Assembly (NCBI GenBank): GCA_029762535.1
Contig: JARVGK010000002.1
Span: forward strand, 73,603 to 137,602
Length of the DNA stretch: 64,000 bases
Origin: Thermoplasmatota archaeon
GTDB lineage: Archaea; Thermoplasmatota; Penumbrarchaeia; Penumbrarchaeales; Penumbrarchaeaceae
Direction: 5' to 3'
Under the pieces are notes generated by a model, which was given only the letters and a program-made list of their open reading frames with translations, had not been told where the DNA came from and searched no databases. A program made the position numbers and the translations under genes. Of the stretch, positions 2,413-17,318 are shown in pieces; position 1 is the stretch's first letter; each line of letters starts with the position of its first letter.

Positions 2413-2919
2413 TCATAATTTTTTTCGATAAACTTGATGGACCTGATCATGGAACAATGTTTCTTTTTCCAGTTTCAATCCATTCTTCTCAGATACTCGT
2501 ATGGATCGTATGTTTTGTTTAAGGATTATGCTTATGATTGATTTGAGTTTCAGTTCATTTTTGGCATACTTAATACATCCTTCAGCTGCTTCGGTCCCAT
2601 ATCCCTTACCCCAAAATTCGTCGGATATCCTGTAAGCGACCTCGATCTCGTCGATCTCATCGATGGTTTGTTTAAGCAATCCACATATCCCAAGAAACCT
2701 ATTATCATCCTTTAGAATAACTGCCCAAAAGGTGAATCCATCTTCATTTTGTCTTCTCTGAATCTCCTTGAGAAATTCCCGCGATTCTATCATGTTCAAT
2801 GTTTTTGGGAAGAACCTATGCACCTTTTCATTTGCCAATAATATCGCCAATTCTTCGAATCTGTCCTCTCCAAGCGTCTCGAGGATCAATCTATCGGTTT
2901 CAAATATTCTCAAGATCAT
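2413..2919 (-). CDS. GNAT family N-acetyltransferase (RimJ/RimL-like)
   Basis: The ORF runs 2413..3060. The internal Met (MILRIFETDRLILE..., about 2919) is the likely start and avoids overlap with the upstream gene. The motif is FWGKGYGTEAA. Confidence 0.6.
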   Translation of the reverse strand: MILRIFETDRLILETLGEDRFEELAILLANEKVHRFFPKTLNMIESREFLKEIQRRQNEDGFTFWAVILKDDNRFLGICGLLKQTIDEIDEIEVAYRISDEFWGKGYGTEAAEGCIKYAKNELKLKSIISIILKQNIRSIRVSEKNGLKLEKETLFHDQVHQVYRKKL

Positions 2920-3010
2920 CTCTCCGATAATGTAGATCGAGGTGTAATGAACGATCCGTACAGTCGAAAGTTGTGCACATGATTCCCGGCCGCTCTTGCT
3001 CTTCTTATTG

Positions 3011-3670
3011 CTACTTTGGTGGAGGATCTGAATAGTTAATTTTCCTGAACACATAGGCATATGCGGTCATGGTGTATGCCGGACCCTTCATTGTCTTTTC
3101 AATTGTTTCTTCATCTATCAGCTTCTTTCCCTTGGGGACGAAATAGGACTCAAGAGCAGTATCCGAATAGCCAAACCTATTCCCATTTCTCTTAACTACA
3201 CCGATGAACTCAAATCTTGTGTCCAGATATGCAAGCGGTGCATCACCATGGCTGTTGTTGGCCAGAAGGATCCCGCCCCTTCTCAAATAGTTCCCACAAT
3301 ACCGCGAAATGGATCCTGCATAGAGGGATATGAGAAGATCGAACGAGTCTTTCTTCTCTGGAAAGCCTTCTGAAAAGTCCGCTTTGTAAAATCTGTAAGA
3401 AGCTGACCGTTCATATTCTTTATTTTTGTTTACGAATAACAATGTCTCGTCTGATCCGAAGAAGGGCTCGCATCTTTTGTCCATATCCACATAAGCCATA
3501 TACGGGATCACAAGTGAGGGCGTAATGTGCACGAAACTGCCGGGATACAACCCGGACTCGATGTTGAACATCTCGGCCAATAAACTGAAAAGTCCGAGCC
3601 TTTCATCCCCCTTGTCGACTAAGTATTTTTTGTAGAGTTCGGGATAAATGGAATTCATTTTGAGTTTCAT
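3011..3670 (-). CDS. hypothetical protein (possibly methyltransferase-like)
   Basis: 219-aa ORF, co-oriented in the same cluster. No secure motif; the function is uncertain. Confidence 0.35.
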   Translation of the reverse strand: MKLKMNSIYPELYKKYLVDKGDERLGLFSLLAEMFNIESGLYPGSFVHITPSLVIPYMAYVDMDKRCEPFFGSDETLLFVNKNKEYERSASYRFYKADFSEGFPEKKDSFDLLISLYAGSISRYCGNYLRRGGILLANNSHGDAPLAYLDTRFEFIGVVKRNGNRFGYSDTALESYFVPKGKKLIDEETIEKTMKGPAYTMTAYAYVFRKINYSDPPPK

Positions 3671-3837
3671 CTTTTACCCCCCCTAAAGGATGAATTTGGG
3701 TCGAACGAAGTGCAACGAGTGGACCACATGGCCGAGATGTAATAGACACGATCGATGGCTGATATTATTCCCCGCCACACAGAAGGAATACACAGCATAG
3801 CGCGAATGATGTGAACGATCAATTATCAGAGACATGT

Positions 3838-4200
3838 TCATTCTGACCAAACTGAGTCTTCATTATCGTCGGGCCGATTAATCTTAAAAACCAGTAGGCG
3901 AAATGGCAGATCCGATCTATTCCAGAGATTATGCACCTCTCTGGGAGAGCACACGAACGCGTCACCTGGTTTCGCAAGGTATTGAGCCTCGTCGATAAAT
4001 ATGTGGCACTCTCCGGATAGGATGTAAAAGACCTCCGTCTGAATATTGTGATAGTGAGCACGCTGTTTGGTGTGGGGAGGGATCGTAACTTCCTGAAGCA
4101 TGTGGCCACCCGGTGGTAGATCCATCGTATCGAACAGTACTCGCTTGGAGTAGTCTTTGCGAACATCTGGTGTGACCGAAGACAGAGAGCTTTGTTTCAT
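3838..4200 (-). CDS. cupin domain protein
   Basis: 120 aa. The cupin motifs are HYHNIQTEVFYILSGE and PGDAFVCSPREVHNL. Confidence 0.6.
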   Translation of the reverse strand: MKQSSLSSVTPDVRKDYSKRVLFDTMDLPPGGHMLQEVTIPPHTKQRAHYHNIQTEVFYILSGECHIFIDEAQYLAKPGDAFVCSPREVHNLWNRSDLPFRLLVFKINRPDDNEDSVWSE

Positions 4201-4229
4201 ATGGGATCCAACCTATTATCAATTGATCT

Positions 4230-4500
4230 TAGAATATTTCCATCAACGGCCGCGAGTATGCGGAGTCCTGGGCGCAGTGATGGATTTGGGTGAGGGGCGA
4301 TCAGCGCCCCGAACTTTATACTCGCGAGTTAAAGGAAACGAACGTAGTTATCCCGCAGGATAACGTATTGAGAGCGGAGCATGGCACGGAGCGAAGCGAA
4401 GTGAGCTTTTCGTCTGCGAAGATCATACAGCTGACGTAGTTATTTCTTGCTCTATTTATCGTTCAGATCCTCCGTGAGGGGGTTCGATACACACTTTTGT
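4230..4500. repeat. structured repeat element, same family as the island repeats
   Basis: Outer stem GCGAGTATGCG / CGAATACTCGCG wait-free reading: 5' GCGAGTATGCG ... TATACTCGCG 3'. Apex is GGATTTGGGTGAGGGGCGATCAGCGCCCCGAAC. It also carries the palindrome GTTATCCCGCAGGATAAC and the tail CCGTAGTTATTTCTTGCTCTATTTATCGTTCA...CCGTGAGGGGGTTCG. Confidence 0.6.
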
Positions 4501-4635
4501 GTCATGGTATTATGGATGTCGGAGAACTCAGATAAAGGAATTGGAGATGGCATCAAATTACCTGACGATGTGCATCAGGCGTAAGCAACGAAAAGTATAT
4601 CTTCATGGCGTCCATGCGTAACACGAATTATAATA

Positions 4636-5271
4636 TTGTGCCACCTGGAGATGACACACATGACGAACCTTGAGAAAATGCTCATTGAGGCGGGCCGGTT
4701 CCACGGCCACATCTGCCCAGGACTGGCCATCGGAGTGGTGGCTTCTTACATTGCTCTTCGTGACGCGCGGCGTTCCGATGACGAGGAATTGGTGGCCATC
4801 GTGGAGAATGATGCTTGCGGTGTTGATGCCATTCAGCACCTCACCGGATGCACCTTCGGCAAGGGAAACCTTGTGTTTCGGGACCATGGCAAGTCCGTCT
4901 ATACATTCCTGAACCGAGCCACAGGCAAGGCCCTGCGCCTTTCTCTCGACCATTCCGCGATCGAAAGCAGCTTGCACGATCGTGAATTGTTCGAAAGCGT
5001 CCGCAATGGAACCGCAACTCCAGGGGAGATAGATGCGTTTCATGTTCGCTGGGAGGAGCGCGCCAGGGAGGTCCTTTACCGTGCTGGATCACTTTTCAAG
5101 GTCGATCAGGTGGACATTGCCTTCCCTGAGAAGGCCCGGATACATGACAATATTACTTGTGATAAGTGCAAAGAGCAAGTAATGGCCACCCGGATCGTGG
5201 AGACGGAACAGGGGCGCAAATTCTGCATACCATGCTCCGAAGAGAAAAAAGAAAAGGAGTATGGAAAATGA
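4636..5271 (+). CDS. FmdE family protein (formylmethanofuran dehydrogenase subunit E-like domain)
   Basis: The FHGHICPGLAIG motif and a C-terminal CxxC...CxxC Zn-ribbon. The start may be the Met at 4660. Its TGA overlaps the next ATG (ATGA at 5268). Confidence 0.65.
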   Translation: MCHLEMTHMTNLEKMLIEAGRFHGHICPGLAIGVVASYIALRDARRSDDEELVAIVENDACGVDAIQHLTGCTFGKGNLVFRDHGKSVYTFLNRATGKALRLSLDHSAIESSLHDRELFESVRNGTATPGEIDAFHVRWEERAREVLYRAGSLFKVDQVDIAFPEKARIHDNITCDKCKEQVMATRIVETEQGRKFCIPCSEEKKEKEYGK

Positions 5272-6362
5272 AAAGAGCAAATCCAAGCTTCGCCACGTTG
5301 GGGCTGCTGCTAACTGTGTCGATCCTCTCCGCAGGATGCTTGAACGTCGAAACGGAAAATGATGGCGAAATGAAGGAGATCACGGACCTGCTTGATCGAA
5401 AAGTTGACGTTCCTGTTGAAGTGGAGCGCGTTGTTGGGGTCGCTTCGGGGACGGTCAGAATGCTGACATACCTTGAAGCAACCGACATGATCGTGGGCGT
5501 GGAGGACGTTGAGACCACGCCTCCCATGACGCCCTACCAGTTCGCCCATCCGGACCTGAAGGACCTCCCCGTTATTGGACCACAGCACGGAGGCGATGCG
5601 GAACTCATAATGGTCCAGCAGCCAGATGTGATCTTCCACTCATGCTCGCAGTTCGAAACGGCCACCGGGGCGATGATGGACGATCTCCAGACGAAGACAG
5701 GCATACCCGTCGTGGCCATAGACCTTGGTGATCTTGGAGAAAGGCGGGCAGTTTTCGATCGATCCCTGCGCCTCATAGGGGATATTCTGGGAAAAGGCGA
5801 TAGGGCAGGGGCGGTCATCTCCTACATCGACAAAGTTCTTGAGGATCTTGAAGATCGGACCTTTGATATACCGGATGACATCAAACCTTCGGTCTACGTT
5901 GGTGGAGTTGCGCTTCGAGGCTCCCGGGACATTCTATCGACGCGGGCGGACTATCCTCCTTTCGAGTACACCAACGTGAACAACGTCGCCTCGTCGGTGG
6001 GCACCGGGCATATGTTCCTCGATAAGGAACAACTTTTGGCCTGGGATCCCGACATTCTGTTCGTCGACTCCATGAGTTACGACCTTGTTGTTGATAGAAT
6101 GACCAATGATACCGCCTATTCCCTGCTGTCGGCCGTTGTCGAAGGCGACATATACACCGTCATGCCATACAATTCATATAACAACAATTTCGCGACGGTG
6201 CTGGCCAACTGTTACTTCGTTGGGTCGGTAGTGTACCCGGATGGTTTTGCAGATGTGAACGTCACGGCCGAGGCAGATGAGATATACTCCGCCATGTTGG
6301 GAGCGCCCGTATATGAGCAGATGGCAAAGAAATACCATGGGTTTGAAAAGATCGACCTTTAA
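5268..6362 (+). CDS. ABC transporter substrate-binding lipoprotein (Fe3+-siderophore / cobalamin / heme class, FecB/BtuF-like)
   Basis: Signal peptide plus lipobox MKRANPSFATLGLLLTVSILSAGC. The body is a periplasmic-binding-protein fold, class III. Confidence 0.75.
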   Translation: MKRANPSFATLGLLLTVSILSAGCLNVETENDGEMKEITDLLDRKVDVPVEVERVVGVASGTVRMLTYLEATDMIVGVEDVETTPPMTPYQFAHPDLKDLPVIGPQHGGDAELIMVQQPDVIFHSCSQFETATGAMMDDLQTKTGIPVVAIDLGDLGERRAVFDRSLRLIGDILGKGDRAGAVISYIDKVLEDLEDRTFDIPDDIKPSVYVGGVALRGSRDILSTRADYPPFEYTNVNNVASSVGTGHMFLDKEQLLAWDPDILFVDSMSYDLVVDRMTNDTAYSLLSAVVEGDIYTVMPYNSYNNNFATVLANCYFVGSVVYPDGFADVNVTAEADEIYSAMLGAPVYEQMAKKYHGFEKIDL

Positions 6363-6389
6363 AATGACTGAAAACTCGGGAAGTTCCAT

Positions 6390-7469
6390 ATGACAGACCA
6401 TAACTCTTCACATAAGCCCCGAGACCCGATCGCACAGCACAGGAGGCAGAACCTCTTAAGGAGAATTTTGCTGCTGACAGGGGCCATCCTATTGGGGCTG
6501 GTGGCCATGTACGCCCTCACCCTGGGACCGTACCCGATGACCATGATCGATGTTTTCAATGCATTCATTGGTAATGGATCGGATGTCCATCGGACCGTGA
6601 TATGGAACATCCGTATGACGCGCATCGCCACCGCCATATTCGCAGGCGCCGCCCTGGCCGTTTCCGGGATGGTAATGCAGAACGTCCTTCGCAACCCCCT
6701 GGCATCACCATCGACACTGGGGGTCTCCCACGCCGCGTCCTTCGGGGCCGCCTTCGGAATCGTTGTCCTCGGCGCGGGCACCACACAGGCCCACTCAGTG
6801 TACTTCGACCACCCCTATTTATTGGCTTTATGCGCATTCGCCGCGGCCATGATTTCCACCGGAGTCATAATCCTGCTAGCGCGGATCAGGGATGCATCAC
6901 CCGAGACCATGATCCTGGCCGGCGTGGCCATGGCATCCCTGTTCACCGCAGGAACCACCTCACTTCGGTACTTCGCCAGTGATGAGGTGCAGCTATCATC
7001 CATCATATTCTGGACCTTTGGTGACCTGGGCCGGACCGATTGGACCTCTGTGTCCATCATTTCTGTGGGCACCGTAGCCACCCTCATCTACTTCTTCCTC
7101 AATCGCTGGCGATACAATGCGATCAACGGCGGAGAGGATGTAGCCCGCACCTTGGGGGTCAATACCAATCGAACCCGCATATTGGGTCTGCTTATCTCAT
7201 CCCTCCTGACCGCTCTGGTCGTCTCCTTCGTGGGCATTATCGGGTTCGTTGGTCTGGTTGTTCCTCACATCGTTCGGCGCGTGGTTGGAACAGACGCCCG
7301 CTTTCTCATCCCCGGGTGCTGTATCGCCGGTGCCCTCCTCCTTCTGGTATCCGACACCGTCGCCCGGACTATGCTCTCACCCGTCATCATGCCGGTTGGG
7401 ATCCTCACCTCATTCCTCGGGGCTCCACTTTTCATCTATCTCATCATCAGGGGGCGGAAGCATTGGTAG
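6390..7469 (+). CDS. FecCD-family ABC transporter permease (BtuC/FhuB-like)
   Basis: 359 aa, polytopic, with FecCD signature motifs. Ends at TAG. Confidence 0.8.
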   Translation: MTDHNSSHKPRDPIAQHRRQNLLRRILLLTGAILLGLVAMYALTLGPYPMTMIDVFNAFIGNGSDVHRTVIWNIRMTRIATAIFAGAALAVSGMVMQNVLRNPLASPSTLGVSHAASFGAAFGIVVLGAGTTQAHSVYFDHPYLLALCAFAAAMISTGVIILLARIRDASPETMILAGVAMASLFTAGTTSLRYFASDEVQLSSIIFWTFGDLGRTDWTSVSIISVGTVATLIYFFLNRWRYNAINGGEDVARTLGVNTNRTRILGLLISSLLTALVVSFVGIIGFVGLVVPHIVRRVVGTDARFLIPGCCIAGALLLLVSDTVARTMLSPVIMPVGILTSFLGAPLFIYLIIRGRKHW

Positions 7470-8260
7470 ATCTCGTCACCCTCGATGATGTCTCGTTCGC
7501 TTACGGGAAGATACAAGCACTGAGTGATATCACTCTTTCCTTTCGGACAGGTTCACTGGTAGGCATGATCGGTCCCAATGGATCGGGAAAGACAACCCTC
7601 ATAAGATGCGTTTGTAGGCTTGTCAGGCCCGAAAATGGAACCGTGACGATCAATGGCAGGGACCTCTCATCACTGAACAGTCTTGATCTGGCCCGCATGG
7701 TGGGGTATGTGCCCCAGATGCAGGAGAAGGCCTTTCCAGTGCCTATATTCGAAGCTGTTCTTGCGGGGCGCATACCTCATCTGGGATGGGCTCCTTCGGA
7801 CCATGATCTTGCCATAGTCAAAAACGTCCTGGAACTCATGGACCTGGAAGATATCTCCCAGAGGAACATCAACACACTCAGTGGGGGACAGATGCAGCGC
7901 GTACAAATCGCCCGCGCCCTGGCCCAGGAACCCCTGGTATTGTGCCTTGATGAGCCCACCAGCAATCTGGACATCAAGCATCAACTGGGGCTCATGCGCA
8001 TGGTACGAGATCTGACCCGGAAAAGAAAGATGCTGGCCCTCATGGCCATCCACGACCTAAACCTGGCATCTCAGTACTGTGACCGATTGGTCCTCCTCCA
8101 GAACGGTGAGGTCTTTTCCTCGGGAACACCACAGGAGGTCCTGACCCGGAAGAACGTCAGGAACGCATTCAATATCAACGTGGCCATTCACACCCACGGC
8201 GATCTGATACACATCGTGCCCGTGGAGAACACTGATCTCAGGAGGCTTGAACATACCTGA
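7463..8260 (+). CDS. ABC transporter ATP-binding protein (FecE/BtuD-like)
   Basis: Walker A GPNGSGKTTL, signature LSGGQMQRV, Walker B LVLCLDEPTS. The ORF track extends it 5' to 7040, but that part overlaps the permease in another frame. The start is probably TTG or GTG near 7463 and overlaps the permease stop. Confidence 0.75.
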   Translation: MVDLVTLDDVSFAYGKIQALSDITLSFRTGSLVGMIGPNGSGKTTLIRCVCRLVRPENGTVTINGRDLSSLNSLDLARMVGYVPQMQEKAFPVPIFEAVLAGRIPHLGWAPSDHDLAIVKNVLELMDLEDISQRNINTLSGGQMQRVQIARALAQEPLVLCLDEPTSNLDIKHQLGLMRMVRDLTRKRKMLALMAIHDLNLASQYCDRLVLLQNGEVFSSGTPQEVLTRKNVRNAFNINVAIHTHGDLIHIVPVENTDLRRLEHT

Positions 8261-8279
8261 ATCTTCTGGCAACCCGGTC

Positions 8280-8525
8280 CAAGGATGGAGTGGGTGCCAC
8301 CCTCGAAGATCCATGGCCGTGGGTTATCCGATCCGAACGGAGTGATCCATTAGGATAACGGGTGGGGACATGCGACGTTGCCGAAGGCAATGTCCCCCTG
8401 GGCGCAGCGGCCCGCAGGGGCGCGGAGGCGTGTCCGCAAGTTAGACAACCCGAGAGAAGCGAGAGCGCAGTGTGGTCGTGCACCGCATCCGAAGGCGAGG
8501 AGCGCAGAAGTTTCTAATTCTCCTG
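8280..8525. repeat. structured repeat element (island family)
   Basis: Carries GGTTATCCGATCCGAACGGAGTGATCCATTAGGATAACGG, the stem GGGGACAT...ATGTCCCC, and the conserved tail GCGAGAGCGCAGTGTGGTCG...GAAGTTT. Confidence 0.55.
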
Positions 8526-8559
8526 AACCACAGGGCTTGGCGTAGTTTTCAATAACCGG

Positions 8560-9942
8560 TTATGTTTCGTGAGGGGGAGTCTCATCCACCACTAACTCAT
8601 ACCAGACATTGTTCCCACCGCCCTTTTTCACAATCTTGCCTTCCCTGATAAGTTCATTCAGGTCACGGAGGGCGGTGCCTCTGTGAATAGAGAAATGATA
8701 TTCAATGTCTTCTGCCATTATTCTCTCTTTAGCTTCAATAAAGTCCATAATCCACTTCAATCGATTTCCTTTGCGTTTGTTCCGCATTTGTATCTGTTCT
8801 TTGTCCGTTCTGTGCCCGATTTCCTTCGGTTCAGCTTCGGATTTGCTTCGGATGTCACGATGGAAGACGGCACTGAAAAAAGAACCAATCTCAAAATCGA
8901 TTCCGAGATCGTACTCTTTCATCGATTTTCTCATCCTTTTAATGCCGGAGCCAGCTTTTTCCACCAGACCAAGTCTGTGAACCATGTCAGTTAAGAGAGG
9001 GTTTCTCTGAGCACTCCGTTTCCCCAGGTCTTCTTCCGGAAACAACAGCTTTCCCGGGTTCACTATTTCCACCCGCTCGGGGCTGATGTGTACCTGGATG
9101 TTCGAGGAATAGAGATAATCCCTGTGTATCATTGCGTTTATGATGGCCTCCCGCAGGGCATCTTTCGGAAGCTCCAGCTTCGCGGTATGTTTCAGGCCGT
9201 CGATGATTATGGCAGTGTTCAGCTTTGACAGAAGATAATTGTTGGCGTCGTTCAGATTGGTGGCGAAGTCTACAGAGAATTCCTTCGAGTCTATGATATC
9301 GATCTGCTCTTTATCGGCATACAGGAAGCAGGCCACCGTCGCATTGGGGAAATGTGATTTTACGTCCTTGGAAAAGAACAGAACGCCGCAGTTGTTCAGC
9401 TTTCCATTGGTCAGCAGGTTCAGGTTGCTCAGAATATGCTCTTTCGACAGGTCGCCGTCCAGCCCTGCTTCCTTCCGGAATCTGGCAAACGCGTCTTCTG
9501 AGAAATCCCGGTCTTTGAAATCAATGGTGTTTCTCTCGAAGGAGATGAGGTTCTCCTTCTGGAACAGTTCCCTAATCTCGTCCCTGTTCAGCTACTGGGA
9601 ATTGGCGCCGTACCTCAGATAGAAGTGGCCGTTCACGGTGTAGGGCTTGTCCTTCCCTTCCGAGACGTATATCACCACCATATCTCTAACCTGCTCGATC
9701 CGGGCATTGAAGGCGGGGTTCATGTTCCTGGCGATGTCTTGGATCTTCGACCTGTCGGAATTGGTCAGCTTGTAGCCTTTTATATCACCGGTCCTATCCT
9801 CAACACCGATTATTATCTTACCGCCGGAGGAGTTGGCAAAAGCACAGATGTCCTTTTCGATGGTACTGCTCAGCGACTCCTTCAGCTCGATGGTGTAGCC
9901 CTCACCGGTTTTCACGACATCAACAAGTTCTTCGTAGTTCAT
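8560..9942 (-). CDS. AlbA_2 (Schlafen-like DNA-binding) + HATPase_c_4 protein, interrupted by one in-frame TAG at 9592-9594
   Basis: ORFs 9592..9942 (AlbA_2-type N-terminus) and 8560..9336 (HATPase_c_4-type C-terminus) are in the same frame (9594-9336 = 258 = 86x3). Manual read-through gives ...GANSQ*LNRDEIRELFQKENLIS... with no other disruption. Confidence 0.6.
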
Positions 9943-10076
9943 ATCTCAACCCCGAGTTGTTCTTCCATCATGATCTCGAACTGCCTTGAGATTAGCAACC
10001 CCTTCTTCTTGCAATGCTCTTTGTATTTGTCGTATAGATCGGAATCCACGCTCAAAGTGACGTTTCTTGACGGCAT
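9939..10076 (-). CDS. ribbon-helix-helix (CopG/Arc-like) small regulator, 45 aa
   Basis: Manual translation: MPSRNVTLSVDSDLYDKYKEHCKKKGLLISRQFEIMMEEQLGVEI. Its TGA overlaps the ATG of the downstream AlbA gene (ATGA). It lies below the 60-aa ORF-track cutoff. Confidence 0.6.
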   Translation of the reverse strand: MPSRNVTLSVDSDLYDKYKEHCKKKGLLISRQFEIMMEEQLGVEI

Positions 10077-10107
10077 GTTATCACATTCACAGGTAAATGT
10101 CTGCATT

Positions 10108-10120
10108 GTTATTTAAATGT
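10108..10120 (-). promoter_or_regulatory. putative archaeal TATA box for the RHH-AlbA operon
   Basis: Minus-strand ATTTAAATA about 35-40 nt upstream of the RHH ATG. Confidence 0.3.
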
Positions 10121-10304
10121 GTATGATCCGTAACCCACCCTCACTCCGGTTATTGAAAATTTAAATCGAGAGTTAGCGAGCCATTTAATGTGTGTTATGC
10201 CTGGTTGCGTAGCAACCGAGTATCTGTTTCTTCTGGTGTTTCGTTAAACGAAGCCAAGCCCGTTTCTGGTGGTTCAGGTTCCACGATTAAAAGGAGGGGA
10301 AAAT

Positions 10305-10480
10305 TAGGATTTTCGGATAACGGACGCGGCTAACCGAAGTTCGTGGGGAGAAGGTGCTTTAGCACCCGAAGCCTTAAAATGAGGTCGAGGCTTCGGTTCC
10401 GAAAATCATCCTGCCGCCGTAGTTTTTTCTTGCTCTGTTTTTATTCATCTTTTCGTTATCCGTCGTGGGGGGTGTTCCGG
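10305..10480. repeat. structured repeat element (island family)
   Basis: Begins TTCGGATAACGGACGCGG. Hairpin GAAGGTGCTTTAGCACCC. Ends with the conserved tail CCGTAGTTTTTTCTTGCTCTGTTTTTATTCATC...GTGGGGGGTGTTCCGG. Confidence 0.5.
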
Positions 10481-10662
10481 TATTCTCTATTCTGCTTGTT
10501 TTTTTCCAAAATGCCTCAATACTCGTATGCTTCATATAATCTCCCAGCGTCCTTCCTTTCGACCGCCCGTGCGTCTGAGCAAACCATCGGATTGCAGTTT
10601 TTGGATGTTTCGTTCTATTGATCGTTCAGTAACTCCTATAAGAGAAGCCAGTTCAGGAATTG

Positions 10663-11940
10663 TTATTGTGTCGTTCTTTTCGATCTCCTGCAATATCTTT
10701 CCTGACGTTTTTCCAACGCTTTCCCGACGCTTTCTCTGGCGATTCCTGTATATAAAAGCGGAATCGCGGTAGTGAATACCGGTCCATCCATATACTTTGG
10801 AACGCCGTCGGGCGTGTAATGAGGTAGATACTTCCCGATATTCATCATCCCGGATCCAATTTCTTCCACCCAGCTCAGTTGTGCAAAGAACTTTGCAATA
10901 ACGGGATTCTTGGAGAAGGGCACCACTTTTTCGGGGTCAAGGACTCCCTCGACCCTGTAGTTGCTTGCGTTAGTGGTTTCTACACGATCTTTGTAAATTA
11001 TCAATCGGGCTGGATGGGCGTTCATGTATTCGCGATGCACCAGAAAATTAGCAATAACTTCCCGGAATATCTTATCGCGTAGACTTATCCTAGCGTCTCC
11101 TTCCAGGTAAAATGGGTCTGGAAGATGTTTGGCAATAAAGGCCATGAGCCGGTCGTATGCTTCAATGAGATTGCAATCTATACGGTCGCGGTCGTCATAA
11201 TGGTCCATCTGAACCCGGCGAACCATGGCATCGATCTTGTAATGAGGTAAAACACTCCGTATGGTCTCGTCTTTTCCCAGTAGCAGGATGGCAGCAAGGG
11301 TATAGCCCTCATTCCCGGTTTCCTGATCCTTTCTGAAAAGCCCGGCCTTGAGCAACAGCTGCTCATCGTCCAATTCTCTCCACGGATGATTCGGTCCACG
11401 GGTTAATATGAGATTACGAAGCCTGGGCAGCATGTCCAAACGCAAATCGTCAAGAGTTGTGGCAGAATAAATTATGTTCTCGGTGTATGTCGCCCGCTTC
11501 CGGTTACTAATCTCCGCGATCCGGTGGGGCTGGGTCACACGGAAATCGCCATCATTGCTTCGGTCGAAGACAACACCGTTGGTTTTATGCACCTAGGAAC
11601 TAGCAGGCACTGAAATATGCATGATCTTCTTTCCATCAAGAACATGTATAACGGGATGGAGGATGAACGGCGGATCCAGCTTTTGAGTATTATTGGAAAG
11701 ATTGACCATATCTGTTTTCATCTTATCGATGGATTGCGGATCGATTCCCAATACCCTTCCTTGATCATCAACTCCGAGAAGAATGTCTCCTCCGTCCCGG
11801 TTCAGCATTGCACATATTGTTTCGAATAAACTCGTGGGAAGAGATTTTCTTGCTTCCTTGTATTCTACCCGGATACCCTCGCCCATTGCAAGCAGATGTT
11901 TAAGGCGAATTTGCATCGGGTCACTTTGCATTTTTCTCAT
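10663..11940 (-). CDS. AlbA_2 + HATPase_c_4 protein (paralog), interrupted by an in-frame TAG at 11593-11595 that is immediately followed by GTG
   Basis: ORF 11593..11940 ends ...HISVPASS. It is followed by TAG, then in frame by GTG CAT AAA (VHKTNGVVFDRS...), which continues ORF 10663..11592. Confidence 0.6.
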
Positions 11941-12070
11941 CCTCTTTCATCTGTTCTTCCATCATGATCTCGAACTGTCTTGATATGAGCCAACCTTTCC
12001 TTTTACAGTAATCTCTGTATTTATTATAGAGATTTTCATCGAACCTTAAAGTAACGTTCTTTGAAGGCAT
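11921..12070 (-). CDS. ribbon-helix-helix small regulator, 49 aa (paralog)
   Basis: MPSKNVTLRFDENLYNKYRDYCKRKGWLISRQFEIMMEEQMKEDEKNAK. Overlaps the start of AlbA gene 2 by 20 nt. Confidence 0.55.
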   Translation of the reverse strand: MPSKNVTLRFDENLYNKYRDYCKRKGWLISRQFEIMMEEQMKEDEKNAK

Positions 12071-12101
12071 TTTAATCACTCACTGCACATACTTACAAAT
12101 G

Positions 12102-12112
12102 CATATAAATGC
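12102..12112 (-). promoter_or_regulatory. putative TATA box for the second RHH-AlbA operon
   Basis: Minus-strand TTTATAT about 30 nt upstream of the RHH ATG. Confidence 0.3.
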
Positions 12113-12139
12113 ATCATTTTTGTTATATGACACCCCCCC

Positions 12140-12445
12140 CACGCCCGTTGAGCAAGAAAAATTTGGGTGAGCGGAGCGAACCATTTAACCGGTGTTATAC
12201 TGGGTTGCGAAGCAATCTGGCACATGTCGTTATTCTCTTTTCGTGTGGGTTAAACGAAGGCGGCAGGAATAGATGATTTTCGCTTGTCTGGCCAATGCCG
12301 GGAGACGAAAAATTTCATTTAACGGACGCGACTATGCGAAGTTGCGTAGCGAAGCGGAGCAATTTGGGTCGAGCGAAGTGCAACGAGCGAGCCGTATAGT
12401 CGCGAGTTATCCGATCCGAGCTATGCGAGGATGAGCATCTTTGAT
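12140..12445. repeat. structured repeat elements (two units)
   Basis: 12150-12200 carries AAATTTGGGTGAGCGGAGCGAACC. 12290-12440 carries TTTAACGGACGCGACTATGCGAAGT...AATTTGGGTCGAGCGAAGTGCAACGAGCGAGCCGTATAGTCGCGAGTTATCCG. About 100 nt are near-identical to the 13185-13290 copy. Confidence 0.65.
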
Positions 12446-12458
12446 GCGAACGTCGGGT

Positions 12459-12881
12459 TCAGTGGTTTTTATTAGCTATATTAAAGAGTTCTTTCGTCGA
12501 GAATCTCTTTAATTTGTCCTGTCTATCAAAATCCTTATCTTCAGTCCATATCCCACTTGCCTTAACCGCCAAACCTAAAGCTAGAAAGGGCGTATCTTTA
12601 ATATCGATATCTTTCATGATTTCTTCAGCGAGTTCAAGATGATCTATGAATACATCCGATGGAATCAATTCGATTCTCTCGAGAATTGATAATAATATGA
12701 TGTCAAATTCTCTATCGGTTAACTTTGATTTTTCGATTAGGTAATGTCGATATTTTTCTATCTCTGTTATTACGTAATCTGGAGCAATAAAATTGAACTC
12801 CTCATTGAAGATGATCTTTCTTGTTTGTGAATCTTTGATCAATCCAGCCATGATTCTATTTGAATCTATGACCATCTTCAT
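12459..12881 (-). CDS. PIN-domain protein (VapC-like toxin)
   Basis: 140 aa. Begins MKMVIDSNRIMAG, with the first PIN Asp in the D-S-N context, plus later acidic residues. Overlaps the antitoxin gene by 4 nt. Confidence 0.6.
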   Translation of the reverse strand: MKMVIDSNRIMAGLIKDSQTRKIIFNEEFNFIAPDYVITEIEKYRHYLIEKSKLTDREFDIILLSILERIELIPSDVFIDHLELAEEIMKDIDIKDTPFLALGLAVKASGIWTEDKDFDRQDKLKRFSTKELFNIANKNH

Positions 12882-13111
12882 GCGGATTGCTTCCTTTTGT
12901 AATGTTTGTAGATGCCTTCTTTGACCTTTTCATCGAGAGCCATGACTTCTTCTTCAGTCAGTTCGCTCTCTTGAGTCAAAGAGTCAAGCAATGCCAACTT
13001 CTTTGCATAATCGGATATTGCCCTTCTAGCAATCTCGCTCCATCTGATCTCGCTGTGTTGTTTCATGATCACATGAATATCTGAAGGTACCGATAGGGTT
13101 ATGTTGGGCAT
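12878..13111 (-). CDS. antitoxin-like small protein (partner of PIN toxin)
   Basis: 77 aa, immediately upstream of and overlapping the PIN gene. The N-terminus MPNITLSVPSDIHVIMKQ is beta-strand like. Confidence 0.5.
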   Translation of the reverse strand: MPNITLSVPSDIHVIMKQHSEIRWSEIARRAISDYAKKLALLDSLTQESELTEEEVMALDEKVKEGIYKHYKRKQSA

Positions 13112-13184
13112 ATGATTACCACACAGGCATATGTGATATCACATATTTATTAATTGCCGTAACCACTGAACCCGATGTCGGATA

Positions 13185-13345
13185 ACGGACGCGACTATGC
13201 GAAGTTGCGTAGCGAAGCGGAGCAATTTGGGTCGAGCGAAGTGCAACGAGCGAGCCGTATGAGCGCGAGTTAAGTTCCCCGAGCCGAAGTTATCCGTAAG
13301 GATAACGTAGGCGAGAGCGCAGCGTGGTCCGGAGTTATCGAAGAT
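13185..13345. repeat. structured repeat element
   Basis: GGATAACGGACGCGACTATGCGAAGT...AATTTGGGTCGAGCG...CCGTATGAGCGCGAGTTAAGT. Followed by GAAGTTATCCGTAAGGATAACG and the tail GGCGAGAGCGCAGCGTGGTCCGGAGTTATCGAAGATAACG. Confidence 0.65.
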
Positions 13346-13370
13346 AACGACGGAAGTTGACCAGGATCAA

Positions 13371-13541
13371 TTAAGAAAACAATATCAAATATACAATGAA
13401 TATCAGTATTATACTAAGGAGAATATAAAAGGGAATACTCTTGCCTTTTTTTGCTAAATAGATTAATAACCCTATAATAGCAAGGATAAATGAAAGAAGA
13501 CAACATCCCGGAATTAATAAAAAATATGTTGGCATTCCCAT
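13371..13541 (-). CDS. small hydrophobic protein, 56 aa, two predicted TM segments
   Basis: Manual translation: MGMPTYFLLIPGCCLLSFILAIIGLLIYLAKKGKSIPFYILLSIILIFIVYLILFS. GGAG lies 8 nt upstream of the ATG. It sits in an AT-rich slot between two repeat elements. Confidence 0.35.
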   Translation of the reverse strand: MGMPTYFLLIPGCCLLSFILAIIGLLIYLAKKGKSIPFYILLSIILIFIVYLILFS

Positions 13542-13571
13542 TAATATTCTCCTGTAAAAATGCTGGTCAAT

Positions 13572-13740
13572 TGAACTTAACGGACGCGACTATGCGAAGT
13601 TTGCGAACGTAGTGAGCAAATTTGGGTGAGGGGCGGGCCGAGCCCCGAACCGCATAGTGGCGTGTTATTCGCCCCGAGCCGTAGGCGAGAGCGCAGCGTG
13701 GTCCGAAGTTATCCGAAGGATAACGAAGGAAGTTGAGGGG
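13572..13740. repeat. structured repeat element
   Basis: CTTAACGGACGCGACTATGCGAAGT...AAATTTGGGTGAGGGGCGGGCCGAGCCCCGAACCGCATAGTGGCGTGTTAT. The tail is GGCGAGAGCGCAGCGTGGTCCGAAGTTATCCGAAGGATAACGAAGGAAGTTGA. Confidence 0.65.
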
Positions 13741-13742
13741 GT

Positions 13743-14141
13743 CTAATGCCCGGATAAGAATTCGGAAGATTGAATGATCCTCACGCTATCATATTGCTTG
13801 ATCTTCAGTAAATGATTATCTCCCGAAATGATATATTCAGCCTTTCCTAAAATTGCTGTTTCCAAGACCATGTTATCCTTTGGATCATCTTCGATGACAT
13901 ATAGAGAATCTGTTATGAAAACGAGATCAGACATCAAGATCAAACTTTGAATGAAAGCATGGATCTTATCATCCGGGACATGGAACTTTTTTCGAAGAAC
14001 CATCTCAGTTTCTGAAAGAATCTGTTCGGAGGTGACAGATCTTATTTTTCCTGACTTGCATCTTGTCAATAATGACCTTTCATTCCCATTCCAGAAAAAG
14101 CCAGAGATGAGAATGTTCGAATCAAGGACTATCCGGACCAA
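13743..14141 (-). CDS. PIN-domain protein (VapC-like toxin)
   Basis: 132 aa. MVRIVLDSNILISG is a classic PIN N-terminus. Ends at TAG. Confidence 0.6.
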   Translation of the reverse strand: MVRIVLDSNILISGFFWNGNERSLLTRCKSGKIRSVTSEQILSETEMVLRKKFHVPDDKIHAFIQSLILMSDLVFITDSLYVIEDDPKDNMVLETAILGKAEYIISGDNHLLKIKQYDSVRIIQSSEFLSGH

Positions 14142-14144
14142 AGA

Positions 14145-14429
14145 TCAATTCTCCTTGGATCTGATTTCCTTTATTGCTTTAAGTACATCTGATTTCTTTA
14201 ACATCTTCTCCTTGGCGAAATCACTTCCCCAATGGAGAAGATTTTGGAAATCCTCATCGGTGGGGATGTCGATCTTTTTCAGGACTATCGTTTCGTTCTC
14301 TCCATACATGGCAAAGAACTCACCGGGTTTGAATCCGAGGAGTTCGCGAAGGTCTTTCGGTATCACGATCTGCCCTTTGGAGGAGAGCCTTGTGATGGTT
14401 ACTTCGGACATGGTAATAAGTAAGACCAT
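14145..14429 (-). CDS. AbrB/MazE/SpoVT-family antitoxin
   Basis: 94 aa. The swapped-hairpin motif is SSKGQIVIPKDLRELLGFKPGE. Directly upstream of the PIN gene. Confidence 0.6.
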   Translation of the reverse strand: MVLLITMSEVTITRLSSKGQIVIPKDLRELLGFKPGEFFAMYGENETIVLKKIDIPTDEDFQNLLHWGSDFAKEKMLKKSDVLKAIKEIRSKEN

Positions 14430-14469
14430 CTTACTATTTCATTTTTTCGGGTACTTGTAGACGATCACA

Positions 14470-14715
14470 TTAAACCCCCGAAATTGCGAATAACGTCCTG
14501 GGGATATGGGAAGTTGGCCGAAGGCCAATTTGGGTGAAGGGTCTGCAAGACCCGTAACCTCATATCCCCATGTTATCTTCCCCGAGCGATAGCGAGAGTG
14601 CAACGGGGTCGAGGCACGAAGTGCCGAAGAAGTTTGAAACCCTGCCGTAAATTCCGTTGTTGCCGTAGTTTTTTCTTACTCTATTCATCGTTCACGTTCT
14701 CCGTGGGGGTGTTCC
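14470..14715. repeat. structured repeat element
   Basis: Stem TCCTGGGGATATGGGAAGT...CCTCATATCCCCATGTTAT. Apex CCAATTTGGGTGAAGGGTCTGCAAGACCCGTAACC. Conserved tail ...CCGTAGTTTTTTCTTACTCTATTCATCGTTCACGTTCTCCGTGGGGGTGTTCCG. Confidence 0.6.
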
Positions 14716-14720
14716 GTTTA

Positions 14721-17318
14721 TCATGCTTTCAACTCTAATTTTTCATTAAATGCTCCAATGAAATTTGTTTTCAGATCTTCATTGTAGAATGGAAGCCCGA
14801 TAATTTTGTATTTCGTATTTTCTGCCAGTATCTCGATTTGATAATTTCCTTCAATGTTTGTTAGGAATTGCTGTTTCCAGTCATCTTTTTCAAGTAAGTG
14901 ACTTCCTTTCGGTTCGATGAAAACCTGGTAATAGAGAATTTGTTTGGTTTTTTTCTCTTTTAAGAATAGGACAAAATCTGGTTCAAGAGAATTTCCATCT
15001 GAAAAGCGATAAAGCTGGAAAATTTTCTGGTTTCTAAGTAGATATATATCTGAATATCTTTTTTGTAATTTATCAATTGCATCGTTTATGAATCTTACAA
15101 AGTATTTCTCTTCTGATGTTCCATAATTTTCTTCATATACATACCAGTCCTTGTTTTTTAGGTCTAATCGTAAATCTAGTTTTAGAGTTTCACTCATCCC
15201 AATACCGATTTCTTTGTCAGATGTGTCATTTACTGCGATATTGATTATTTTGTCTTCTACTAAATCTTTAATTTTGCTTGCTTTGAATAATATAGTCCCG
15301 ACATATTCAGTATAACCAGATTCGATATTGCTTTGAAGTTTCTTCAAAACCTCTGTACATATTTCCAGTTTATCATCACAATTGAGTGAATCTAATTTTG
15401 TAATTGAAGTCGTTACCTCTACCTGAACATCTTTTAAAGCTTCAATGAACTTGCTGATAGATTTTGATTTAGGGAAATATTTTTTCAGGTTATTAAATTT
15501 GTAAAAATCCAACCTGGTTAGAGATTTTCGCATAATTTGAATTCCGAAGTCGTTCAGTTTAAAAATCTTTGATCTTTTCTCTTCAACATCTTTCTTCTTT
15601 TCCCCGTTGAATATAGTAGAATCTCTAACATATCCTGTTCTGAGACCAATTTTATACAATTTATCGATGTCCAAATCTGATATATCCTTGATTTTAGTTC
15701 TATCTGATTTTTTCTTTTCGTTGATGAATATCAGGCCATTAGACCAAAAATCTGATTTCTTAAACCCATCTTTGACTTTCAAATGGATTTCTCGCTTTTC
15801 CGGTGGCATGATGCCAGATTCCACCAAAGCTGTAGTCAATTCTTGAATGTATCTTGGGTTATGGGCACTGTGGTAATAAAGCTCTTCAAGAATTTTCAAC
15901 TCGTTGTTTGGTTCCTCATCGTATTTTCTCTTGAATCGCTCCTGTTCATCTGTTATTGTGAAAGGAAAATATCTAGCGCCTCTCCCGATAAGTTGGGCTT
16001 CTGCGATGGTCGTTTTACCAGGCTTCCCTGCTTTTGCATCTCTAGTATCATAAAGTCTTACAATGTCAAATAGATTGAGAACATCCCAACCTTCGTTAAG
16101 CATACCGACTGCAAAAACAACCCGAATTTCGTTATCTTTATCCTCAAGCGAATTAACTAGTAACTGTTTCTTTTCACTCTCACTTTTAGAATTGACTGAT
16201 AAACACTTATTCTCATGAAATTCTTCTTTAATCTCTGATACCAAATTCTCCAATGTAATGTCATTTTCTTCAAAATAATTAAAAGCCGTATTAAGAATCG
16301 ATTTTTGTTCAACATTGTTTTTTATTTTTGATATGTCGCTAATTTTCAAGGATTTGATCTTTTTCTTAAATTCATCTTCAATAGTGGTAGATTCATCAAT
16401 GGTTCTGGATTTCAACAGGATTACTGGCTTAATAAATTTCTTATGCTTTTCTGCAATCTTTCGTCTATATTGACTTAGGATGACTGACTGTAATGTCCTT
16501 TCTATTGGCTTTAAATCTGCCTCCATCACTTTGACTTCCTTTGAATACCCGTCTAATCTAAACTGTTTTAATGAGTAATCATAGATTATTTTACTATCGT
16601 ATTTATCTCTAATTGCTGGATGACTCAAATCAACGGTGGCGGTATACTCCAGCATGATATTTCCCAGGTTTGAATTGAAGATATTATTTACGGTATGTTC
16701 CCAGGTAGTTTTGGCTAATTTTTCTTCCTTACCCAATTTATTCTTTGTCCAAGCATTGATATGGTGGGCTTCATCGGAAATGATTACGATTTTTTTATCC
16801 TTGAAGTCCTCGTAAGTCATGCTGTTCTCGCGCGGGGTATTCATGAAACAGTGAAGCCCCTGGATTGTGGTAAAATGGATATTGATCGCATCAGGGTTAG
16901 CACCCTCGAAATTTTCTACCGGACTAATGAAAACCTCTTTTTCTCCAAATTTTATGTGTTCGTTGAACAGATATTTTGATGAAAGTAGATTTAAGAAATT
17001 ATCTTTAGTCTTTTCTATGATGTTGGTACTATTCACAAAGAAAAGAAAATTCCGATAACCTTTCTCATAAAGATAGAGAATATTGGCGGCCATCAATAAT
17101 GTTTTTCCGCTTCCAGTGGCCATGTGAAACAGCAATTGCGTTGGTTTGATTCTCCTTTTATCTTTTTCATAATTATAAATGAATCTGCGTATAGCTTCCA
17201 GTTGATATTCTCTCAATTCAAACAAATGATTCAGATTATTTGTAATATTGTCTGGAATCTCAGTACCCAGCAAGCCCTGTTCTGAAAGAACATCATACGT
17301 TTCCTTCAAAGTGGGCAT
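14721..17318 (-). CDS. Type III restriction-modification system restriction subunit (Res; SF2 helicase-nuclease)
   Basis: 865 aa. Helicase motifs LREYQ..., MATGSGKT, VISDEAHH. Positioned immediately downstream of the mod gene, with only a 1-nt gap. Confidence 0.7.
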   Translation of the reverse strand: MPTLKETYDVLSEQGLLGTEIPDNITNNLNHLFELREYQLEAIRRFIYNYEKDKRRIKPTQLLFHMATGSGKTLLMAANILYLYEKGYRNFLFFVNSTNIIEKTKDNFLNLLSSKYLFNEHIKFGEKEVFISPVENFEGANPDAINIHFTTIQGLHCFMNTPRENSMTYEDFKDKKIVIISDEAHHINAWTKNKLGKEEKLAKTTWEHTVNNIFNSNLGNIMLEYTATVDLSHPAIRDKYDSKIIYDYSLKQFRLDGYSKEVKVMEADLKPIERTLQSVILSQYRRKIAEKHKKFIKPVILLKSRTIDESTTIEDEFKKKIKSLKISDISKIKNNVEQKSILNTAFNYFEENDITLENLVSEIKEEFHENKCLSVNSKSESEKKQLLVNSLEDKDNEIRVVFAVGMLNEGWDVLNLFDIVRLYDTRDAKAGKPGKTTIAEAQLIGRGARYFPFTITDEQERFKRKYDEEPNNELKILEELYYHSAHNPRYIQELTTALVESGIMPPEKREIHLKVKDGFKKSDFWSNGLIFINEKKKSDRTKIKDISDLDIDKLYKIGLRTGYVRDSTIFNGEKKKDVEEKRSKIFKLNDFGIQIMRKSLTRLDFYKFNNLKKYFPKSKSISKFIEALKDVQVEVTTSITKLDSLNCDDKLEICTEVLKKLQSNIESGYTEYVGTILFKASKIKDLVEDKIINIAVNDTSDKEIGIGMSETLKLDLRLDLKNKDWYVYEENYGTSEEKYFVRFINDAIDKLQKRYSDIYLLRNQKIFQLYRFSDGNSLEPDFVLFLKEKKTKQILYYQVFIEPKGSHLLEKDDWKQQFLTNIEGNYQIEILAENTKYKIIGLPFYNEDLKTNFIGAFNEKLELKA

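Follow-up and report, generated by a model that had tools for sequence, protein, structure and literature searches.

Two neighboring paralogous genes on a contig of a Thermoplasmatota archaeon are each interrupted by an in-frame UAG codon, which raises the question of whether these codons terminate translation and leave two dead genes, are read through, or separate two parts that are expressed on their own. Both genes were analyzed within the window (the whole stretch of DNA under analysis, 64,000 nucleotides), in which copy 1 lies at 8560..9942 and copy 2 at 10663..11940; the two genes, all of their parts described below, and the small ORF in front of each are on the minus strand. Our answer is that both Schlafen genes are very probably ordinary, very recent, and strain-private loss-of-function pseudogenes.

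Architecture of the two interrupted genes

Translation of window 8560-9942 yields 461 codons with codon 117 as the sole internal stop and a terminal TAA, i.e., copy 1 is one 460-codon frame in which TAG at 9592-9594 is the only break. A sequence-only reading of this DNA had described the same single interruption and had placed the resulting ORFs at 9592..9942 and 8560..9336, and both the translation and the ORF listing agree with it. The residues before the stop are GHFYLRYGANSQ and those after it LNRDEIRELFQKENLISFERNTIDF, and the DNA at 9597-9589 reads CAG TAG CTG. The N-terminal ORF (9592..9942; 116 codons plus TAG) encodes a predicted Slfn/AlbA_2 nuclease domain, and the remaining frame (8560..9591; codons 118-460 plus TAA) encodes a middle domain, a GHKL-type HATPase_c_4 domain, and a C-terminal winged helix-turn-helix (wHTH), with no additional lesion. 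GenBank names the C-terminal piece "ATP-binding protein" (MDG6224090.1). When the frame is joined across the stop, SLFN_AlbA_2 covers residues 14-119 and HATPase_c_4 residues 280-346. The TAG sits right at the end of the Slfn domain as delimited by Pfam, whose profile positions 1-118 align to residues 14-119. In the AF2 model of an ortholog (P0001), residue 117 is predicted to close strand 114-117, directly before helix 120-129. The C-terminal HTH is in frame (modeled helices 380-422 plus a hairpin), with a fold match to the AspA wHTH and a weak match to FeoC.

Copy 2 (425 codons) has the same Slfn/AlbA_2 domain and a weak HATPase_c_4 domain. The ATG at 11916, which is the annotated start in the orthologous contig L011, may be where it truly begins. 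Copy 2 is broken by a TAG and then ends prematurely because of a frameshift. The TAG (codon 116, 11593..11595) is its sole in-frame stop and lies between ISVPASS and VHKTNG, where protein homologs read PASSQVHKTNG. It is 2,001 bp from the TAG of copy 1 and, in the alignment, about 18 positions nearer to the start of the Slfn domain. This places it within the domain, at around profile position 98 of 118 in Pfam, and the last hairpin is lost. The frameshift comes from a tandem repeat with the 11-bp unit GAAAGCGTCGG, the remnant of which (10697..10734) has 3.5 units in the window vs. 5.5 in the intact orthologs: two units (22 bp) are missing between 10735 and 10734, and the wHTH is consequently out of frame. 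This contraction occurs in the window only, with 5.5 units in L011, L013, and L003. The orphaned wHTH persists in a different frame as a 53-aa ORF (10532..10693) that aligns to the C-termini of P0241-P0243 (98.5% identity across 66 aa, tblastn). That the paralog carries the same kind of lesion nearby, as the earlier reading had stated, is confirmed for the TAG at 11593-11595, but the additional frameshift had been overlooked.

By domain content, both copies are predicted prokaryotic Schlafens (pSlfns) of the HisKinase-HTH architecture. PF04326 (Slfn/AlbA_2) scores 72.4 bits in copy 1 and 57.1 bits in copy 2 (Pfam gathering cut-off 25.3), and PF13749 (GHKL/HATPase_c_4) scores 60.6 and 28.7 bits (cut-off 26). 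The Ex4(E/D)xK motif, as defined in PMC13056530, reads E14-GYTI-E19-L-K21 in copy 1, which also has D49, and E21-GIRV-E26-Y-K28 in copy 2; E14 and K21 are invariant in the family alignments, and E19 nearly so. The N-terminal half of copy 1, previously described as DNA-binding, is better regarded, on Pfam and on PMC13056530, as a Schlafen-type nuclease domain with a predicted Ex4ExK catalytic motif. Fold matches relate the Slfn part to SLFN5/11/13/14, and the middle part to the catalytic (histidine-kinase CA) domains of CusS, VanS, and PDHK; a wHTH was also matched. In PADLOC, residues 23-342 of copy 1 align to positions 52-414 of the pAgo model PDLC02394 (E = 1.7e-17). For these proteins PADLOC matched only the SLFN-GHKL portion of the pAgo and Aga models, and neither of them is covered by an NCBIfam model.

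Each gene is preceded by a small ORF. The one before copy 1 (9939..10106; 55 aa) overlaps the copy 1 start by 4 bp and is kept upstream of the orthologs in L011, L012, and L017 (94-95% aa identity) and in L016 and L013 (76-77%); its paralog before copy 2 (11921..12079; 52 aa) is 77-79% identical at the amino acid level to those of L011 and L013. The 55-aa ORF has no match in Pfam, PADLOC, or NCBIfam, and could be a ribbon-helix-helix-like partner or regulator. The locus consists of two modules in tandem, both made up of a small, possibly ribbon-helix-helix ORF followed by a gene for a Slfn-GHKL(HisKinase)-HTH protein. This cassette sits at the edge of a defense and toxin-antitoxin island, with two PIN toxin-antitoxin pairs (12459..14429) and a type III R-M system (14721..19326) less than 10 kb away and an LmuB-like gene and a TmtA-like gene further along. 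A promoter and terminator scan of 8300..12400 did no better than shuffled sequences, the consensus being bacterial and the host archaeal.

Ancestral codons and recency of the lesions

The syntenic metagenome contig L011 carries the entire four-gene cassette intact (nucleotide identity 92.5% for copy 1 and 95.2% for copy 2; the window has a 33-bp in-frame insertion after position 8807 of copy 1), and has CAG at both TAG sites with identical flanks (30 bases on each side at the copy 1 site). Codon 117 of copy 1 is CAG in 9/9 distinct relatives with 83-90% amino acid identity (L015, L108, L011/L012, L094, L016, L092, L017, and L093), and codon 116 of copy 2 is CAG in 4/4 distinct close orthologs (L011, L013, and L003-L006). 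Every close ortholog thus has a sense codon at both sites, a comparison that the sequence-only reading had proposed, and among the approximately 157 family loci no stop is found at these two positions. Both TAGs are private C-to-T changes of conserved CAG codons.

The window branch of copy 2 has 19 synonymous and three nonsynonymous changes, the stop being one of the three. In copy 1 there are 12 synonymous and 15 nonsynonymous changes on the window branch, while the L011 branch has 12 and 4, respectively (Fisher P = 0.064). These changes show recency, with the reservation that branch dN/dS does not separate a gene that has just been broken from one still under selection. Both paralogs were hit within less than about 5% of the branch (dS about 0.06).

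Decay across the family and mutational base rate

Visible degradation affects about 14-16 of approximately 150 family loci (about 10%). The lesions are TAA in L028, L045, L118, L138/L139, and L043, TAG in L018 (a WOR-3 bacterium MAG) and L114, and frameshifts or deletions in L022, L053, L078, L098, L099/L100, L119, and L041. A TAG-specific bias in the family was considered and rejected, given that TAA lesions outnumber TAG lesions in the 157-locus survey and many frameshifts are found as well. The share of the nonsense target that gives TAG is 47-52% in copy 1 and 36% in copy 2, and two TAGs would arise by chance with a probability of about 0.18, so there is no TAG excess that calls for an explanation. 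The mutated C's sit in GCAGC and CCAGG. Deamination of 5-methylcytosine at palindromes is unsupported as a cause: depletion in host-GC DNA is seen neither for CCWGG nor for GCWGC (observed/expected 0.90 and 0.98, respectively), their deamination products are not enriched, and no C5-methyltransferase was found among the ORFs scanned.

The private TAGs, the frameshift in copy 2, and the decay of about one tenth of the family together support parallel inactivation of a defense-type gene, one of the possibilities raised from the sequence alone. One C-to-T transition in each Schlafen gene turned a conserved CAG (Gln) into TAG, and in copy 2 slippage removed two units of the 11-bp coding repeat and shifted the wHTH off frame. 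If translation stops at these codons, the product of copy 1 would be a 116-residue Slfn fragment and that of copy 2 a 115-residue fragment without the last beta-hairpin, both lacking the GHKL and HTH regulatory parts; termination at these codons is presumed, and the alleles are presumably null. We infer that the double knock-out is no coincidence and stems from relaxed selection or from counter-selection against an effector of the tRNase type that is potentially toxic to its own host.

Stop codon usage and read-through

Several points weigh against two dead genes: both lesions are ambers and both stand in place of Gln, the very residue that would be put back if a near-cognate tRNA read UAG; copy 2 is still under strong purifying selection on its branch; and copy 1 has a single lesion. 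These points are equally consistent with continued low-level function and with recency. They would fit genes that are conditionally or weakly functional, with UAG decoded as pyrrolysine (Pyl) or, at low level, as Gln by near-cognate tRNA-Gln(CUG), an alternative that we consider improbable.

That a near-cognate tRNA can insert Gln at UAG is well established for bacteria and yeast, and the window encodes both tRNA-Gln(CUG) and GlnRS. At the basal near-cognate level, however, only a trace product would be made, and copy 2 is frameshifted in addition. The TAGs are conserved in no ortholog, and in-frame TAG is also found in the bacterial WOR-3 MAG member of the family, with TAA in others. Folding of the 120 nt downstream of the TAGs is not significant (z = -1.8 and -1.5; 12 and 19 of 200 shuffles fold equally well), the +4 bases after the two TAGs differ (C vs. 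G), and orthologs with CAG have the same sequence downstream. Programmed read-through, which had been suggested for copy 1, has no support: the stop is unconserved, RNA structure is nonsignificant, the +4 bases are unlike, and TAG usage resembles that of archaea without Pyl.

The Pyl version of this alternative draws on the presence of Pyl in some Thermoplasmatota (Methanomassiliicoccales; PMC9630628) and on TAG usage of up to 27% in Pyl+ archaea (range 1-27%; PMC12626013). In the window, TAG terminates about seven well-supported and two uncertain genes of about 48 (15-19%), which fits the median of 22% in Pyl- archaea and not that of 5% in Pyl+ archaea; about 5% of archaeal genomes are Pyl+ (PMC12626013). 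The TAG-terminated genes have in-frame extensions of 60-175 codons and no backup stop. ARAGORN and Rfam found only tRNA-Glu(CUC) and tRNA-Gln(CUG) and no tRNA-Pyl in the 64-kb window, and a Pfam scan of the same 64 kb found no pyl genes and no methylamine methyltransferases (mtmB, mtbB, mttB). Read-through of the two TAGs is unproven and unlikely.

Nothing in the 64-kb window supports global stop reassignment: there is one TAG per gene and TAG ends genuine genes of the window, e.g., 33469..35631, where the last Pfam domain reaches residue 713 of 720. The sequence-only reading had judged reassignment unlikely from at least ten TAG-ended genes, where our count is the seven well-supported and two uncertain ones given above. 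By contrast, family members in Gracilibacteria/Patescibacteria (L072 and L087) have 13-17 in-frame TGA codons, mostly at Gly. No gene in the window is interrupted by TAG other than the two copies, and a TAG-ATG at 1584 is an ordinary gene junction.

Assembly support

Because the source is a metagenome-assembled genome, the lesions might instead be artefacts or minority alleles (an erroneous consensus, mixed strains, or assembly collapse of the 11-bp repeat) in a population that is predominantly intact, which we regard as unlikely. A second assembler gives the same sequence: its Logan contig SRR24067139_136 matches window 1..12349 at 100% identity, with both TAGs and the contracted repeat inside the match, although it and the MAG are different assemblies probably made from the same reads and do not constitute independent sequencing. 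Two independent consensus errors that each create a stop in a paralog are unlikely, and an unbroken Logan contig over both sites argues against an alternative allele at high frequency. Tandem repeats are liable to errors of copy number in assembly, but the perfectly periodic stretch of the intact repeat is about 41 bp, a length at which, by calculation, no 31-mer recurs and a k = 31 graph would not collapse. The break of the Logan contig at window 12349, immediately beside the cassette, is a hint of heterogeneity among strains in this neighborhood.

Conditional and split expression

The absence of any lesion besides the TAG in copy 1 and the constraint on the copy 2 branch leave room for a reading in which the two ambers work as a conditional switch, with full-length Schlafen effectors made only upon UAG suppression, i.e., a dormant defense triggered by suppression. 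The suppressor could come from a pyrrolysine system elsewhere in the genome or be a suppressor tRNA from a TAG-recoded virus. We think it very unlikely that the codons serve in this way.

It is least credible of all that the genes are deliberately split in a natural two-gene arrangement, with one protein for the Slfn nuclease domain and another, translated after re-initiation, for the GHKL-HTH half: the copy 1 TAG does lie at a domain end and, in the AF2 model, at the end of a strand before a helix, but every homolog is a single collinear protein that continues straight through the break (22 for copy 1 and 15 for copy 2) and the closest orthologs, L011 included, are unsplit; the first ATG/GTG/TTG past the copy 1 TAG is 85 codons downstream, at 9336, so a restart there would give a product without residues 118-202, in which many positions are near-invariant; and the copy 2 TAG is interior to the domain. 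The collinearity across the TAG that had been proposed as a check is thus found in both copies, no homologs end at the break, and deliberate split expression is contradicted.

Implications and comparison with known systems

If both genes are recently inactivated pseudogenes, as we favor, the annotation should give the two gene pairs as pSlfn-HisKinase-HTH pseudogenes and not as four separate proteins. The locus would then be a clean and datable case of rapid loss of a Schlafen-type defense gene, and such loss, together with the decay of about 10% of the family, fits costly effectors with fast turnover. Only if the ambers are suppressed in vivo would the locus interest genetic-code or defense biology; otherwise it means little beyond annotation.

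According to PMC13056530, HisKinase-HTH is the commonest pSlfn architecture (19.2% of surveyed pSlfns), defense was seen among the tested pSlfns only for DUF262 and Ig-like fusions, and HisKinase-type pSlfns, even intact, have no demonstrated phenotype. The window genes share with this class the Slfn/AlbA_2 domain with its Ex4(E/D)xK motif, the GHKL middle part, a C-terminal HTH (in frame in copy 1, out of frame in copy 2), and adjoining defense genes, but differ in that both copies are interrupted; the conserved small upstream ORF does not appear in the sections of that paper that were covered. The closest solved relative, by sequence (E = 2e-18 over residues 29-341) as well as by fold (Foldseek E = 1.6e-24), is DIP2311 of Corynebacterium diphtheriae (PDB 3LMM, from structural genomics), although identity amounts to just about 20% and the structures superpose poorly as a whole (TM about 0.44), a probable effect of differing domain arrangement. 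SLFN-pAgo fusions (Schlafen, GHKL ATPase, and Argonaute), as described in bioRxiv 10.64898/2026.05.29.728809, have the SLFN-GHKL module in common with copy 1, but carry Argonaute where the window genes have a wHTH.

The lone in-frame amber in a nonessential gene of regulatory or sensor type recalls RdmS of Methanosarcina acetivorans, one of the genes outside the methyltransferases that have an in-frame TAG (PMC12626013). Genes of the RdmS type, however, sit in Pyl-decoding methanogens, whereas the window has Pyl--like TAG usage, its TAGs occur in no ortholog, and one of its two genes is also frameshifted. With the ordinary decay of defense genes the locus shares private nonsense transitions and a short tandem-repeat contraction, in accessory genes that belong to a variable island, the only oddity being that both tandem paralogs were hit at almost the same time.

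In-frame TAG codons in two tandem Schlafen genes

The frame of copy 1 (8560..9942, minus strand) comprises 460 codons and is broken on translation by one internal stop, the TAG at 9592-9594 (codon 117, context YGANSQ*LNRDEIR). Its tandem paralog, copy 2 (10663..11940, minus strand), likewise has one internal stop, the TAG at 11593-11595 (codon 116, context VPASS*VHKTNG). With the stops bridged, both genes pass the Pfam gathering scores for SLFN_AlbA_2 and HATPase_c_4. Translation thus agrees with the sequence-only reading, which had noticed a single in-frame TAG in copy 1, with ORF coordinates exactly those in the ORF listing, and a like lesion in the nearby paralog.

That the lesions are an artefact or a minority allele is, in our judgment, quite improbable. 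Run SRR24067139 was also assembled by a different pipeline (Logan), and that assembly matches window 1..12349 at 100% identity, both TAGs included, which argues against an assembler-specific error, the Logan assembly and the MAG probably not being independent sequencing. The C-terminal ORF of copy 1 and the neighbouring aminoacyl-tRNA synthetase are identical to the MAG proteins MDG6224090.1 and MDG6224126.1.

Ancestral codons and a second lesion

The four-gene cassette recurs with unchanged gene order on L011, a syntenic ENA contig of 4,357 bp, where both large genes are unbroken (468 and 444 aa); nucleotide identity is 95.2% to copy 2 and 92.5% to copy 1. The L011 codon is CAG at both TAG sites, and the 30-base flanks of both sites are identical to those in the window or differ by one synonymous change. 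Related loci were then scanned by tblastn as a survey set, 77 of them taken from species-representative genomes and 80 from metagenomes. At codon 117 of copy 1, nine of nine distinct relatives at 83-90% amino acid identity have CAG, and more distant loci have CAA, CAG, AAA or another sense codon, with a stop in none of the surveyed loci; at codon 116 of copy 2, four of four distinct close orthologs have CAG. Because close relatives all keep CAG (Gln) at both sites, each TAG is a private C-to-T transition of a Gln codon. Homologs continue past both TAG positions; a natural two-gene arrangement is therefore ruled out.

Copy 2 is also frameshifted. Its close homologs have 473 aa with a winged helix (wHTH) at the C-terminus; the window frame stops 48 residues early, and the orphaned wHTH lies in another frame as a 53-aa ORF (10532..10693). 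The early end is caused by the loss of 22 bp between 10735 and 10734, corresponding to two units of the 11-bp tandem repeat GAAAGCGTCGG, which is present 5.5 times in L011 and the homologous loci L013 and L003 vs 3.5 times in the window. Full-length copy 2 protein could not be regained by TAG read-through alone. The repeat lies in a coding linker (window 10697..10734; L011:1613-1672; also L013 and L003) and is conserved in these three intact orthologs, the window alone deviating. Since only three-unit changes preserve the frame, the repeat forms a built-in hot spot for slippage and could act as a contingency locus.

Timing and possible cause of a probable inactivation

Substitutions were polarised with an outgroup, and the resulting synonymous : nonsynonymous (S : N) counts fit genes just broken and genes still selected and read through alike. 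For copy 2, S : N was 19 : 3 on the window branch and 24 : 9 on the L011 branch (Fisher P = 0.32), the stop being one of the three window-branch N changes. Purifying selection on copy 2 remained strong along practically the entire branch; its TAG and deletion therefore arose very recently. The copy 1 counts were 12 : 15 and 12 : 4, respectively (Fisher P = 0.064), a hint of relaxed constraint; of its N changes on the window branch, half fall in the variable linker/wHTH region.

Most probably, both tandem pSlfn-HisKinase-HTH genes lost their function in very recent times, and in this strain alone. An ordinary transition would have turned CAG into TAG in each copy, with copy 2 additionally losing repeat units through slippage. 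Parallel inactivation, one of the possibilities raised earlier, is supported by the private CAG-to-TAG changes in both copies and the copy 2 deletion. A shared cause may reasonably be supposed: either selection had relaxed, or it acted against an effector cassette that is potentially self-toxic.

Read-through and split expression

UAG read-through, or retained function of the genes, is compatible with the branch counts as continued selection, and a trace of near-cognate decoding of UAG by tRNA-Gln(CUG) would put the wild-type residue back; we nevertheless regard it as very doubtful, given the copy 2 frameshift and the use of TAG to end about 7-9 of the ~48 credible genes in the window. Some of these have their last domain finishing a few residues before the TAG, and the in-frame sequence past gene-ending TAGs stays free of a backup stop for 60-175 codons. 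Programmed read-through, as the sequence-only reading had suggested, finds no footing in the 120 nt 3′ of each TAG, which fold no better than shuffles and have the same sequence as in CAG-bearing orthologs. Median TAG usage is 22% in archaea without pyrrolysine decoding (Pyl-) vs 5% in those with it (Pyl+), which range from 1 to 27% and make up ~5% of archaeal genomes (PMC12626013). Pyrrolysine decoding in this genome is unlikely, a search covering the 64-kb window having found no tRNA-Pyl, pyl genes or methylamine methyltransferase.

Deliberate split into separate products, also suggested from the sequence, is the least likely reading and we reject it: the copy 1 TAG does coincide with the end of the Slfn domain (after strand 114-117, before helix 120-129 in the model of the intact ortholog P0001), but the next ATG/GTG/TTG lies 85 codons on, at 9336, so that a restarted product would lose residues 118-202, many near-invariant, the copy 2 TAG falls inside the domain and removes its last hairpin, and none of the orthologs compared is split. 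The small remaining probability goes to explanations not listed here.

Degradation elsewhere in the family

About 14-16 of the ~150 family loci in the survey set are visibly degraded. Single nonsense codons occur in L028 (Methanosarcinaceae MAG, TAA), L045 (Draconibacterium MAG, TAA) and L018/L014 (WOR-3 bacterium MAG, TAG, again at a Gln position), and frameshifts or internal deletions in L022, L053, L078, L098, L099/L100, L119 and L041; L043 and L138/L139 are remnants. Outside the window, TAA lesions exceed TAG lesions, so the family has no amber-specific pattern. If all single-base changes that create a stop in the intact orthologs are counted, TAG accounts for 47-52% of them for copy 1 and 36% for copy 2, and both lesions would be TAG ~18% of the time.

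The L014/L018 member (WFRF01000052.1, 63% identical) has its in-frame TAG at 1246-1248 where homologs have Gln (context NPSFNV*IEQ); a break shared with copy 1 was only an appearance, the caller having restarted the C-terminal part at a TTG just past copy 1's TAG position. As a positive control for true recoding, L072 (Gracilibacteria MAG) and L087 (Patescibacteria MAG) each have 13-17 in-frame TGA codons in match regions 6001-6945, mostly at Gly, which is the signature expected of genetic code 25.

Genomic surroundings

Both copies lie at the edge of a defence island (12350..28053; 29-42% G+C in a roughly 55% G+C genome), the low stretch spanning 12.4-27 kb against ~52-60% in host-type DNA. 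The island holds a type III R-M system (14721..19326), an LmuB-like SMC ATPase (19323..21803), a TmtA-like protein of 1,365 aa (22833..26930), a tyrosine integrase (27253..28053) and two PIN toxin-antitoxin pairs. The Logan contig stops exactly at 12349, where the island starts. L093:282-1059 and L108:1322-2099 match window 13726..14503, the MazE/PIN pair (13743..14429), and place it directly upstream of the copy 1 ortholog with no copy 2 or other PIN pair between; L092 has a remnant of a copy 2-type C-terminus downstream of its copy 1 ortholog. Among relatives, the modules of the island occur in reshuffled arrangements.

An AAA_15 ATPase of 438 aa (57431..59202, minus strand; PADLOC NsnB 4e-42, AriA 3e-37), followed by a 152-aa ORF without matches, could represent another defence locus, this one within DNA of host-type G+C. 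At 351..1934 (minus strand), DUF3795, glyoxalase/Ble-like and YoaP-like genes lie end to end in one frame, meeting at TAG-ATG and TGA-ATG junctions; a single interrupted frame was rejected in favour of three ordinary genes. CTAG is strongly under-represented in the host-GC parts (1..12300 and 28001..64000; 23 observed vs 56 expected, O/E 0.41). The window also encodes a class I GlnRS (49334..50998, minus strand; NCBIfam TIGR00440 glnS 716 bits, cut-off 426; PRK14703 840, cut-off 681) near tRNA-Glu(CUC) (49198..49273) and tRNA-Gln(CUG) (52400..52475), with close homologs in many Thermoplasmata MAGs; it is notable because archaea are classically said to have no GlnRS.

Gene family and relation to known Schlafens

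Homologs found by searching number in the hundreds and are single, collinear proteins, 430-480 aa long. A conserved ORF of 52-55 aa precedes copy 1 (9939..10106) and copy 2 (11921..12079) and orthologs in five other contigs; we read it, from its sequence, as ribbon-helix-helix-like. The AlphaFold2 model of P0001 (89% identical; mean pLDDT 85.5) best matches the uncharacterised DIP2311 (PDB 3LMM), followed by mammalian SLFN5/11/13/14 N-domains, histidine-kinase catalytic domains and a winged-helix protein, and the PADLOC match is limited to the SLFN-GHKL part of a pAgo model. The N-terminal domain carries Ex4(E/D)xK (E14/E19/K21 in copy 1, E21/E26/K28 in copy 2), given in PMC13056530 as the defining motif of prokaryotic Schlafen (pSlfn) nucleases. 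From motif, Pfam domains, fold and PADLOC matches, the architecture of both genes is Slfn-HisKinase(GHKL)-HTH, the HTH of copy 2 now lying out of frame; the same paper puts this architecture at 19.2% of all prokaryotic Schlafens. The tRNase-based phage defence demonstrated there concerns other pSlfn architectures and not Slfn-HisKinase(GHKL)-HTH.
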